From the NCBI GenBank assembly GCA_964588515.1, contig CAZPPU010000011.1, positions 1 through 13,155 on the forward strand: 13,155 bases of DNA. The letters run 5' to 3'. The position numbers were made by a program, and so were the translations under genes. The notes beneath the pieces were generated by a model. The model did no database searches. It was not told the origin of the DNA and saw nothing but the letters and a program-made list of their open reading frames with translations. Shown in pieces: positions 5,842 to 7,982 of the stretch. Every line of letters begins with the position of its first letter. The first letter of the stretch is position 1. The stretch is from an uncultured Nitrospirota bacterium (GTDB taxonomy: Bacteria; Nitrospirota; Thermodesulfovibrionia; Thermodesulfovibrionales; JdFR-86).

Positions 5842-7459
5842 GGCGGCCGCACAGGGCGCCTACGAGGCGGGCGTCTCCGTTGCCACGGGCTATCCGGGCA
5901 CGCCTTCCACAGAGGTCCTCGAATCCCTAATGAAATCAAGCGGGGTCTATGCGGAATGGTCCTCAAACGAAAAGACCGCGCTTGAGATGGCATCCGGAGC
6001 GTCCTTCGGCGGCAAGAGGGCGCTCGTTTCCATGAAACATGTGGGCCTCAATGCGGCCGCAGACCCCCTTATGACCCTCTCATATACCGGCGTGAGGGCC
6101 GGCCTTGTCATAGTCGTCTCGGACGACCCGGGAATGCACTCTTCACAAAACGAGCAGGACTCGAGGTTCTACGGCCTATTTGCAAAAGTCCCGGTTCTTG
6201 AGCCTTCAGACAGCGAAGAGGCCCTTCTCTTTACAAAACAGGCGTTCTCCATAAGCGAGGAGTTCGACACGCCGGTTATCGTAAGGCTCACGGCCGCGGT
6301 CTCCCATTCGGCAAGCCTCGCAGAGACGGGCGAAAGGGCAGAGCATGAGATTGCGCCATGGAAGGAGCCGGAAAAATATGTGATGCTCCCGCCTTACTGT
6401 AACGAGCGGAGGGCGGGGCTTGAGGAAAGATTAGGGAGACTGAGGGAGTTTTCCGATTCCTTCCCTCATAACAGGGCCGAGTACGGCACAGGCGAAACAG
6501 GCATCGTAACATCCGGCATCTCATACCAGTATGTGAAGGAGGCATTCCCGGAGGCCTCGGTCTTCAAGGTCTCGATGTCATACCCGATGCCGCTTGGGGC
6601 CATAAAGGAGTTCTCCAAAAGGGTAAAACGCCTCTCCGTCATAGAGGAGCTTGAGCATTACATGGAAGACGCAATAAGGGGGGGCACGGCCCCCTCCGAT
6701 TTTGGGGGCACGGCCCCCTCCGACCGGCCACGGGCCGGAGCGGCTAACGGAGCTACAGCCCCCTCGCCGGAAGAGGGCGGCGCATTTTGTGCGGGATGCC
6801 CTTACTTAGGGGTGTTTTATTGCCTCAAACGGACGGATTGCTTTGTATTCGGCGACATAGGCTGTTACACTATGGGCGCAAGGCTCTTCCCCGGGAGCAT
6901 GGACACGACGCTCTGCATGGGCGCGGGGATAAGCCAAGCCGTGGGCTTTCTCAAGGCAAGGCCCGAAGGCAAGGCCATAGCGGTCATAGGGGATTCGACA
7001 TTCTTTCATTCGGGAATCCCCGCGGTCGTAAACGCACTCCACCACAAGACGCCCCTGTCCCTGATACTCTTGGACAACGGCGTTACGGCCATGACCGGCG
7101 GGCAGTCCTATGCAGGCAAGGGAATAAACCTCGAGGGTCTCCTTCACGCCCTCGGACTCAAAAATGTCTCCGAGGTCAACCCCTACGATATAAAAAACAT
7201 AAGCGTTGCCATCCATAAAAGCCTCGATGGGGCTTTGAACTCCGCTCTGCCATCGGCTATAATTATAAGAGGCAGGTGCGCGGTAAAGGAGCGTCCCAAA
7301 AACATGGCCGTGGACCCGGCCCTGTGTAACGGGTGCATGGAATGCCTTGAGCTTAAATGCCCGGCCCTCGTAAGGGAAAACGGGGCGGTTGCCGTCCGGG
7401 CAGGATGCACCGGCTGTGGGCTTTGCGCCTCGGTATGCCGAAGAGATGCGGTTGGATAA
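5816..7459 (+). CDS. iorA: Indolepyruvate:ferredoxin oxidoreductase alpha subunit (TPP-binding, with a C-terminal 2x[4Fe-4S] ferredoxin domain).
   Basis: 547 aa. N-terminus [34 protein letters not shown] is the canonical IorA start. The CAGCPY...[9 protein letters not shown] TPP region is present, and the C-terminus carries [13 protein letters not shown] and [11 protein letters not shown] ferredoxin motifs. It overlaps the MMPL stop by 26 nt. It contains an unusual low-complexity insert [15 protein letters not shown] (see findings). Confidence 0.85.
   Translation: [547 protein letters not shown]
6683..6730. repeat. Tandem 24-nt direct repeat (GGCACGGCCCCCTCCGATTTTGGG then GGCACGGCCCCCTCCGACCGGCCA) inside iorA. 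It encodes [14 protein letters not shown].
   Basis: Read directly: the 17-nt GGCACGGCCCCCTCCGA occurs at 6683-6699 and again at 6707-6723. The same architecture recurs at 7896-7940. Confidence 0.8.
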
Positions 7460-7982
7460 AGTAACGAACATAGTCTTTACGGGCCTCGGAGGCCGCGGGA
7501 TAATCACGGCATCGGATATCTGCGCGCTCTCGGCAGTTTACTCCGGTGCGGATGTGAAGAAGTCCGCGCTCAAGGGGATTGCCCAGAGGGGCGGGCTCGT
7601 CGTAAGTCATGTGAGGTTCGGCCCGAAAGTCCGCAGTCCCAGAGTAGAGCCGGGCGCCGCGGACTTCGCCGTAAGCATCGGCGGAAGGGAAAAGGCCGTC
7701 CCGTTCCTCGCAGAAAGCGGGATCCTAATAGATATGCCCGACGATATGATAAAAAAATACGGCCGTTTTGCGAACATCTACGCCCTCGGCATCCTGTCCC
7801 GGCATCTGCCTTTCGGCGCGGACGCATGGCTTCTTGCAATAAAGGAGAGGTTCCTCGACGGCGTGTGCTCGGAAAACATAAGAATATTCAGTGAGGGGGC
7901 TGCGGGCCCCCGCGATTTTGGGTCCGCGAGCCCCCGCGCTATAGGAATCAATGAAAGTCTGCTGTCTCATACCCGCATATAA
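7446..7982 (+). CDS. iorB: Indolepyruvate:ferredoxin oxidoreductase beta subunit. The likely start is the ATG at 7446; the six-frame ORF opens at 7389.
   Basis: MRLDKVTNIVFTGLGGRGIITASDICA... is the typical IorB/POR-gamma-like N-terminus. AAGAGA lies ~6 nt upstream. It overlaps the iorA stop by 14 nt. The C-terminal tail ...EGAAGPRDFGSASPRAIGINESLLSHTRI looks like an acquired extension that overlaps the next gene. Confidence 0.75.
   Translation: MRLDKVTNIVFTGLGGRGIITASDICALSAVYSGADVKKSALKGIAQRGGLVVSHVRFGPKVRSPRVEPGAADFAVSIGGREKAVPFLAESGILIDMPDDMIKKYGRFANIYALGILSRHLPFGADAWLLAIKERFLDGVCSENIRIFSEGAAGPRDFGSASPRAIGINESLLSHTRI
7896..7940. repeat. Second copy of the GC-rich ~44-nt element: GGGGGCTGCGGGCCCCCGCGATTTTGGGTCCGCGAGCCCCCGCGCT.
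   Basis: It aligns with 6683-6726: GC-rich unit, then GATTTTGGG, then a second GC-rich unit. It sits at the iorB 3' end, where it encodes AAGPRDFGSASPRA. Confidence 0.7.

Follow-up and report, generated by a model that had tools for sequence, protein, structure and literature searches.

What is the GC-rich DNA that is read through in frame by two adjacent genes of an uncultured Nitrospirota bacterium, and how did it come to lie there? The stretch analysed here, referred to as the window, comprises 13,155 nt (positions 1 to 13,155 of contig CAZPPU010000011.1, assembly GCA_964588515.1). The two genes, named for indolepyruvate oxidoreductase (IOR), are iorA (5816-7459, + strand), whose 547-aa product contains the Pfam domains POR_N, TPP_enzyme_C and Fer4, and iorB (7446-7982, + strand), whose 178-aa product contains the Pfam domain POR. 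A first-pass annotation of this DNA described two GC-rich composite loci, both translated in frame, which is confirmed here except that its coordinates fall 1-3 nt short at the edges. Its view of them as two copies of one element of ~44 nt gives way to that of two arrays of head-to-tail 24-nt units belonging to two different sub-types. The reading favored here, with a probability of about 0.7, is that each locus is an array of GC-rich stem-loops of 24 nt, which belong to a high-copy, lineage-specific family and have spread as selfish DNA in the manner of repetitive extragenic palindromic (REP) sequences.

The iorA array begins with unit 1 (6680-6703, + strand), which reads GGGGGCACGGCCCCCTCCGAtttt and consists of the stem GGGGGC, the loop ACG, the stem GCCCCC and the tail TCCGATTTT; it encodes GGTAPSDF and scores 16.2 bits against a profile hidden Markov model (HMM) of the unit. 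Unit 2 (6704-6727, + strand) reads GGGGGCACGGCCCCCTCCGAccgg and encodes GGTAPSDR; its tail has diverged (GACCGG), and its first 20 nt are identical to those of unit 1, which it follows head-to-tail with a period of 24 nt. A variant hairpin, CCGGCC-ACG-GGCCGG (6724-6738, + strand), retains the geometry of a 6-bp stem and an ACG loop, with all changed stem positions compensated. Two decayed units (6728-6775, + strand), assigned by reading the sequence, encode PRAGAANG and further residues and resemble the unit GGGGCTACGAGCCCCCTCGC of the related contig L027; together with units 1 and 2 they make up a block of 96 nt.

The iorB array comprises 48 nt (7895-7942) and is translated in frame as AAGPRDFGSASPRA; it follows a conserved motif, ...ENIRIFxE, and is separated by 13 codons from the stop, which is conserved as well. 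Unit 1 (7895-7919, + strand; GGGGGCTGCGGGCCCCCGCGATTTT; 15.5 bits against the unit HMM) represents the second sub-type, with the stem GGGGGCT, the loop GCG, the stem GGCCCCC and the tail GCGATTTT; the stem is 7 bp long, one G-T pair included. Unit 2 (7920-7942, + strand; GGGTCCGCGAGCCCCCGCGCTAT; 12.3 bits) has a decayed 5' arm and matches the single unit of L027; one long hairpin results when its 3' arm base-pairs with the 5' arm of unit 1. The hairpin potential attributed to each unit in the first-pass annotation is thus borne out as a stem of 6-7 bp with a 3-nt loop, and a two-unit array can fold as one long hairpin with a DNA free energy of -17 to -19 kcal/mol (z-scores of -1.6 to -2.9).

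The pattern GGGGGCN{3,5}GCCCCC is found three times in the window, at the iorA and iorB loci only, against 0.03 occurrences expected, and none of 200 shuffled sequences reaches three. A repeat finder pairs the two loci with 73% identity over 40 nt. The motif GATTTTGGG, which is the junction between the tail of one unit and the G-run of the next, is not significant by itself in the window, and Tandem Repeats Finder detected neither array, since a pair of copies is not long enough for its score threshold. Neither Rfam nor any other family yields a match for the units, and a tRNA search finds none.

The consensus of the units, which are 24 nt long, reads GGGGGC(T)-ACG-(A)GCCCCC-KSCGATWTT. Six-frame translation reveals that sub-type A (GGGGGC-ACG-GCCCCC-TSCGATWTT) is free of stops in all six frames, and that sub-type B (GGGGCT-ACG-AGCCCC-CGCGATWTT) contains one stop, in a single reverse frame. 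Because the unit corresponds to eight codons and is stop-free in six (A) or five (B) of the six frames, its insertion or the growth of an array never breaks the reading frame. The stem variants GGGGGC/GCCCCC, GGGGCT/AGCCCC, GGAGGC/GCCTCC (seen twice, at different loci), CCGGCC/GGCCGG (from the window) and GGGGTT/AGCCTC all pair, and a stem of at least 5 bp is kept in 28 of 32 units, a pattern which shows that the stem is maintained through compensatory double changes.

Whether the arrays are old features of the two proteins or late additions can be read from close relatives. The syntenic contig L001 (ENA; protein P0002) was retrieved by a protein search with IorA and is 92.8% identical to the window over ~6 kb of DNA; L027 and L028 (both JGI) were retrieved by cluster look-up. 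In L001 and L028 the iorB site is empty, TTTAAAGA being followed directly by AGGAATCAATG, and IorB has 162 aa. At this point 24 nt (AGGGGCTACGAGCCCCCTCGCTAT) are inserted in L027, giving an IorB of 170 aa, and 48 nt in the window, giving 178 aa. The flanks of the insert align cleanly across all of these alleles, with scattered substitutions only, and the inserted residues are not conserved. Further cluster look-ups for length variants returned no new ones.

This allelic series corrects one proposal of the first-pass annotation, namely that the insert had displaced the iorB stop codon. All alleles, insert-free ones included, end in GINE(S/N)LLSHTRI (tail GINESLLSHTRI) at a common stop and share a 32-nt overlap with the next gene, which encodes a family-2 (GT2) glycosyltransferase (7951-8622; Pfam), and the 48-nt insert precedes this stop by 13 codons. 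The AGGAA ribosome-binding site and ATG of the GT2 gene (7943-7953, + strand) directly follow the array on its 3' side and are identical in alleles with and without the insert.

In iorA the situation is different, in that the 96-nt block stands in the place of the native inter-domain linker of the relatives. The first-pass annotation took the linker to be variable and the array to be inserted into it, but a nearly invariant G-E(L) linker motif is present in all 15 aligned IorA homologues. The array has taken the place of this conserved linker, and was not simply added to it, since the motif is missing from the window protein. The two other forward frames of 6660-6800 were considered as the site of a frameshifted remnant of the native linker, a candidate that was rejected: neither contains a trace of the GELS linker, and one contains stops. 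Residues 289-320 of IorA are encoded by the array. In the AlphaFold2 model of IorA, computed from a 16-sequence alignment, the mean predicted local distance difference test (pLDDT) score is 84, and the only segment below 50 comprises residues 291-320, which lie between two confidently folded domains; the array-encoded linker of 32 residues is accordingly predicted to be disordered. A PDB search with IorA yields no solved relative that spans the linker.

The iorA linkers of the close relatives are built differently from that of the window and vary in copy number. They contain a 36-nt in-frame tandem unit, PLPHGELSGGQC, with the hairpin GGGGGCAGTGCCCCC, in two copies in L001 (3838-3909) and in four identical copies in L028 (3791-3934), and each of the two contigs has, in addition, a stem-compensated unit in reverse orientation, GGAGGCACGGCCTCCTGCGATATC, which encodes YPISQEAVPP. 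Because the 36-nt repeat joins a hairpin unit to native coding sequence of the iorA linker (21 nt), it suggests that the hairpins promote slippage of neighboring host DNA. The linker is thus a site that has been remodelled again and again across strains. Since strains that are ~93% identical carry zero, one or two iorB units and a differently built iorA linker, the arrays in both genes are recent insertions and not conserved residues. An unrelated 12-nt in-frame indel relative to L001 is also present in iorA (7215-7226; HKSLDGAL in one, HE----AL in the other) and has no connection with the hairpin family.

If the arrays are members of a family, copies are expected beyond iorAB. A scan of 185,579 reference genomes, the source genome not being among them, with the composite pattern GGGGGCN{2,7}GCCCCCN{1,5}GATTTTGGG gives 25 matches, all of them single terminator-like hairpins in unrelated taxa that look like real terminators, and none composite. 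The same pattern gives 50 matches in metagenomes, of which 47 are terminator-like singles and three are multi-unit arrays (L034, L054 and L064). These three contigs all come from JGI metagenome 3300031949 (Ga0214473), the sample of the orthologue L028, and their tetranucleotide composition correlates with that of the window at r = 0.86-0.94, compared with at most 0.74 for unrelated loci. A synthetic peptide query made from the six-frame translations returns four proteins at an E-value of 10 or below. Two are useful: P0130, a MazG protein encoded on L064 and also on L080, and P0131, an APH-like kinase on L079, from the ENA sample of L001. The other two, P0132 and P0133, were discarded as unrelated low-complexity proteins. 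The kinase gene contains five consecutive in-frame units (PNIAGGRA...), which score 18-21 bits although they were outside the HMM training set; three of them are identical.

Together with the copies that the profile HMM adds, ~15 further arrays of one to five units lie on unlinked lineage contigs, in both orientations and several reading frames, and 24-mers with no more than two mismatches occur at 15 or more unlinked loci. In-frame intragenic units lie in the genes for a flavin adenine dinucleotide (FAD)-dependent oxidoreductase (two sites) and the APH-like kinase and in mazG, galT and rtcA; units at gene 3' ends lie at rtcA, thiC and asd; and intergenic units lie between hemC and mazG, asd and pilZ, queH and thiS, the convergent pair fer4/hycI on L080, and hisG and the 4HBT gene of L001 and L028. 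At rtcA of L034 (396-470, - strand), the open reading frame (ORF) runs through a three-unit array (...MPQNRGGSRGAVPPQNQGGL, then the stop) and ends at a TAG in the last hairpin loop; the frame concerned is the single reverse frame of sub-type B that contains a stop, and this is a real case of an array that supplies the stop codon of a gene, as the first-pass annotation had mistakenly supposed for iorB. The first-pass suggestion of a small family of repeats, or of a miniature insertion element, that genes tolerate inside their coding sequence is therefore supported, both by orthologues that lack the residues and by copies at unlinked loci inside, at the ends of and between genes. In lineage DNA (48.6 kb), 21 units reach a score of 10 bits or more (0.43 per kb), as opposed to one in 442 kb of unrelated loci (0.002 per kb), a difference of ~200-fold that is biased upward because the contigs were partly found by their arrays. 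No units are detected in 44 kb of more distant relatives with 43-44% G+C, namely the Nitrospirae metagenome-assembled genome (MAG) GCA_016207905.1 and two Logan contigs (64% identity in IorA, 79-82% in the FAD enzyme).

The distribution of these copies bears directly on whether each locus could simply have produced its own GC-rich minisatellite by slippage, the resemblance of iorA and iorB being convergent. Such purely local tandem duplication fits the behavior of the arrays as variable-number tandem repeats (VNTRs), as seen in the two and four identical 36-nt copies of L001 and L028, the three identical units of L079 and the zero, one or two units at iorB, and it also fits the microhomologies at their flanks, which differ in length (3 and 7 nt). 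However, near-identical 24-mers recur at the unlinked loci, where they are oriented either way and read in different frames, and relative to unrelated DNA the unit shows a 200-fold enrichment. The empty iorB site (AAAGA directly followed by AGGAATC) contains no source sequence from which a hairpin could be duplicated. In addition, a 48-nt heterodimer (GGGGCTACGAGCCCC... followed by GGGGCAGGTAGCCCC...) is identical at 44 of 48 positions (92%) at the unlinked mazG and queH-thiS loci, which points to block-wise copying of dimers as a possibility. Local duplication is largely refuted by these dispersed near-identical copies and is considered very unlikely as the whole explanation.

The FAD-dependent oxidoreductase of L054 provides a second case of polymorphic insertion. 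It carries AGARSPKIAGARSP in the first Rossmann loop (site 1) and IKGAGSPR further on (site 2), whereas P0134, a protein 91-93% identical to it, has a different and shorter insert at site 1 and none at site 2. Among seven homologues with 74-82% identity, the site 2 insert is absent from all and the site 1 insert from six; the seventh, P0136, contains a related hairpin. When MazG is compared with its E. coli counterpart (3cra), its internal array likewise proves to be an insertion of 13 residues. Another hairpin, GGGGCC-CGC-GGCCCC, is found beside an A-run at the Rossmann-loop position of the FAD oxidoreductase gene of L082 (5340-5362), where it encodes KGARGP. The relative to which this contig belongs is more distant (78% protein identity, 54% G+C), and the hairpin either descends from an earlier stage of the family or marks a recurrent insertion site.

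The family has been seen in four independent sources, all of them metagenome assemblies (an NCBI MAG, ENA ERZ27256953, JGI 3300031949 and JGI 3300032112). GC-rich hairpins and short tandem repeats can collapse or expand in such assemblies, so exact copy numbers could be wrong. That the arrays as such are an artefact of assembly or sequencing at GC-rich palindromes is nevertheless hardly credible, given the four sources, the agreement of L064 and L080, which come from different assemblies, in their arrays, offsets and scores, and a reading frame that is kept in every intragenic array.

It may also be asked whether the repeated peptide, and not the DNA, is what has been selected, as a flexible linker or low-complexity motif with the DNA similarity as a by-product. 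The encoded peptides are rich in Gly, Ala, Pro, Ser and Arg and are placed in linkers, loops and termini. Sense intragenic copies mostly use one frame, G-G-x-A-P-x-D-F/I (iorA and iorB of the window, galT, L027 and site 2 of L054), and all of them lie in loops, linkers or tails, which speaks for a protein module. Depending on frame and orientation, however, the same DNA gives the unrelated peptides GG(T/A)AP(S/R)D(F/I), KIAGARSP or NIAGGRAP, GAVPPKSQ, and PQNRGGS, at least five different combinations being observed, which indicates that conservation acts at the level of the nucleic acid. Conservation tracks the base-paired stem and not the codons, clearly intergenic copies exist, and the array in iorA has removed a nearly invariant G-E motif; selection for the peptide is judged highly improbable.

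A host-selected function of the DNA or RNA, as a stabilizer or terminator at mRNA 3' ends, a translational coupler, or a binding site for nucleoid, gyrase or uptake proteins, has more in its favor. The stem is kept by compensatory changes, several copies (thiC, rtcA, asd, and fer4/hycI of L080) coincide exactly with the 3' ends of genes or with the gaps between convergent ones, the ribosome-binding site of the next gene comes directly after the iorB array, and such roles are known for REPs (PMC3733652). Yet at least 10 of ~16 loci overlap ORFs, many of them antisense to the transcript, and presence or absence differs between near-identical strains with no compensating change. The T-run is limited to four T's located 4-5 nt after the stem, and a terminator scan flags one of the four window units, at 7901-7914, with a different short stem. 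Rfam offers no match. An uptake-sequence drive was rejected because the copies are indels and not accumulated point substitutions. A host function is, on balance, an unlikely primary explanation.

The selfish, REP-like reading stands against these alternatives: the sequences show a dispersed, recently active and lineage-restricted hairpin family that inserts or expands without breaking reading frames. Under this reading, the units would be copied to new sites singly or as dimers. The likeliest agent would be an enzyme that acts in trans on single-stranded hairpin DNA (HUH/RAYT-like), as occurs in IS200/IS605 and RAYT systems, and inserts the copies beside sites composed of an A/T run and a G. 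On their left, the arrays are usually flanked by an A/T run with a G after it (...ATAAGG, ...TAAAGA, ...CTTTTAG, ...ATAAA, ...AATTTTT, ...TGTTTT), and the model places insertion 3' of this motif because the same context recurs at the junction between units (GATWTT/GGGG). The 3' tail of each inserted unit would thereby recreate the target, which would favor head-to-tail arrays. Replication slippage would then lengthen or shorten the arrays, to which the series of zero, one and two units, the two and four copies, and the three identical units would correspond. Recombination between copies may delete the intervening DNA, and replacement of the IorA linker is consistent with such a deletion between element copies. 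Insertions would survive selection only where both frame and position are tolerant. In the window, one such history may have exchanged the native inter-domain linker of IorA for a disordered, array-encoded linker of 32 residues, and another may have added 16 residues to the C-terminal tail of IorB, just upstream of the GT2 ribosome-binding site.

Besides the upward bias in density, several points weigh against this reading. No transposase or mobilizing gene is present on the retrieved contigs, and no Y1_Tnp is found on the ~49 kb of lineage contigs. No target-site duplication of fixed length is observed, the flanking direct repeats measuring 3 nt at iorB and 7 nt at site 2 of L054, and this variability means that microhomology or template switching fits at least as well as transposition. 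Assignment of the extra copies to the lineage rests on shared samples, composition and proteins of 91-93% identity, and translation of the arrays is inferred only from intact ORFs. One candidate unit, in queH, was dropped, as it scores 7 bits in a region that is not longer than in the solved homologue, T. maritima QueH, and thus contains no insertion. It is conceivable, though doubtful, that the 24-nt unit or its 48-nt dimer is the smallest known autonomous-looking mobile module adapted to coding sequence, one that recreates its own target and is moved by an enzyme other than a RAYT.

Several consequences follow for the proteins concerned and for genome analysis. The family offers a clear and apparently very active case of selfish DNA within proteins outside Rickettsia and the proteobacterial hosts of REPs, with a simple, countable architecture. 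Strains with zero, one, two or more units amount to a natural insertion scan that reveals sites tolerating 8-40 extra residues; such tolerant loops, linkers and termini are seen in IOR, MazG, RtcA and the Rossmann-fold oxidoreductase, and even the nearly invariant linker motif of IorA can be lost. If the mobile-module reading is true, protein linkers are remodelled as a by-product, here with deletion of that motif. The arrays also create spurious length variants and low-complexity segments, break alignments and can shift predicted starts and stops, as in the rtcA stop within a hairpin loop and an N-terminal extension of MazG; they are likely hotspots of assembly error and are of use as strain markers. 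The lack of a GTAG/CGTC tag and of inverted dimers raises the question of whether hairpin repeats can propagate by means other than RAYTs.

The host is an uncultured Nitrospirota bacterium with ~55% G+C whose nearest named homologues belong to MAGs of Nitrospirae/Thermodesulfovibrionales. Upstream of iorAB, the window encodes HisG, a 4HBT thioesterase and an MMPL transporter, and downstream of them B12-radical SAM proteins. The neighborhood at 3055-13117 thus includes the 4HBT thioesterase, the MMPL transporter, the GT2 glycosyltransferase and several B12-binding radical SAM genes, and iorAB of the distant relative L085 (2157-11183) adjoins genes for an acyl carrier protein, an acyltransferase and two ketoacyl synthases. 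Because of these neighbors, the "indolepyruvate" oxidoreductase may act in a lipid or secondary-metabolite pathway instead of aromatic amino-acid catabolism.

A second, unrelated hairpin repeat is present in the window as 33-nt direct copies of AGAAAATGGATTCCCGCCTMCGCGGGAATGACG at 1313-1345 and 2056-2088, which are 97% identical and flank a hicA (1450-1689, - strand)/hicB (1689-1883, - strand) toxin-antitoxin pair; at 2008-2037 there is a hairpin that is related to them but oppositely oriented. The whole resembles a small cassette that has entered between hisG and a Band-7 gene, and the repeat is not seen on other lineage contigs. The gap between hisG and the 4HBT thioesterase gene contains ~119 extra nt in L001 (25-153) and L028, including a hairpin with a 9-bp stem (ATAGGGGGCTTGCGCCCCCTAT), in comparison with a 16-nt spacer in the window (3039-3054).

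The comparison with known systems places the family among tolerated palindromes. REPs fall into GTAG- and CGTC-tagged superfamilies with the tag at one end of the stem-loop, and intragenic copies, which are occasional and encode 20-80 residues, have been described, as has the provision of stop codons (Di Nocera et al. 2013, PMC3733652). The present units share with REPs a short (20-40 nt; here 24 nt), GC-rich stem-loop, a high copy number (21 units per 48.6 kb), lineage specificity and variability between strains, as well as frequent location at gene 3' ends, where they sometimes give the stop codon (rtcA, asd), and occasional location within ORFs. In contrast to REPs, none of 32 units has a GTAG or CGTC tag at either end: each starts with a G-run after an A/T run and ends with KSCGATWTT, and GTAG appears only within the loop and stem of sub-type B on the opposite strand (CTCGTAGCC), never at a unit end. 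Whereas REPs mostly form head-to-head or tail-to-tail inverted dimers, all multi-unit arrays here are head-to-tail with a period of 23-25 nt, and the majority of loci overlap ORFs. REPs are also associated with the gene of a RAYT, a Y1 transposase of the IS200/IS605 type, which the repeats flank.

The lifestyle of the family resembles that of the Rickettsia palindromic elements (RPEs), palindromes that lie in frame within unrelated genes, leave the ORF intact and add surface or loop peptides; iorA, iorB, the FAD oxidoreductase (two sites), mazG, the APH-like kinase gene, galT and rtcA follow this pattern with the frame kept. RPEs are regarded as selfish DNA tolerated in proteins, and RPE-1 is a single insertion of ~100-150 bp. 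The 24-nt units differ from it in their tandem 8-codon arrays and unrelated sequence, and their host is a free-living anaerobic Nitrospirota lineage and not an alphaproteobacterial intracellular parasite. With intragenic minisatellites or VNTRs the arrays share in-frame head-to-tail units, a period divisible by three and copy-number polymorphism among strains; unlike a VNTR, which is the product of a single locus, the unit occurs in at least 15 unlinked genes and intergenic regions in both orientations. Miniature transposable elements with inverted repeats (MITEs) measure 70-300 bp and have terminal inverted repeats of 15-30 bp and a target-site duplication of fixed length. The present units are, like them, small, non-autonomous, dispersed and readable through in frame, but they measure 24 nt, have the 6-7 bp stem as their sole inverted repeat and show flanking repeats of variable length (3 and 7 nt). 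CRISPR arrays alternate repeats with unique spacers of similar length, whereas the units here abut without spacers. The full-text literature searched contains no description of such repeats in Nitrospirae or Thermodesulfovibrio, which is not proof of novelty. The family is therefore classified with the REP- and RPE-like selfish palindromes, from which it is set apart by 8-codon head-to-tail units, the absence of REP tags and a strong presence within ORFs.

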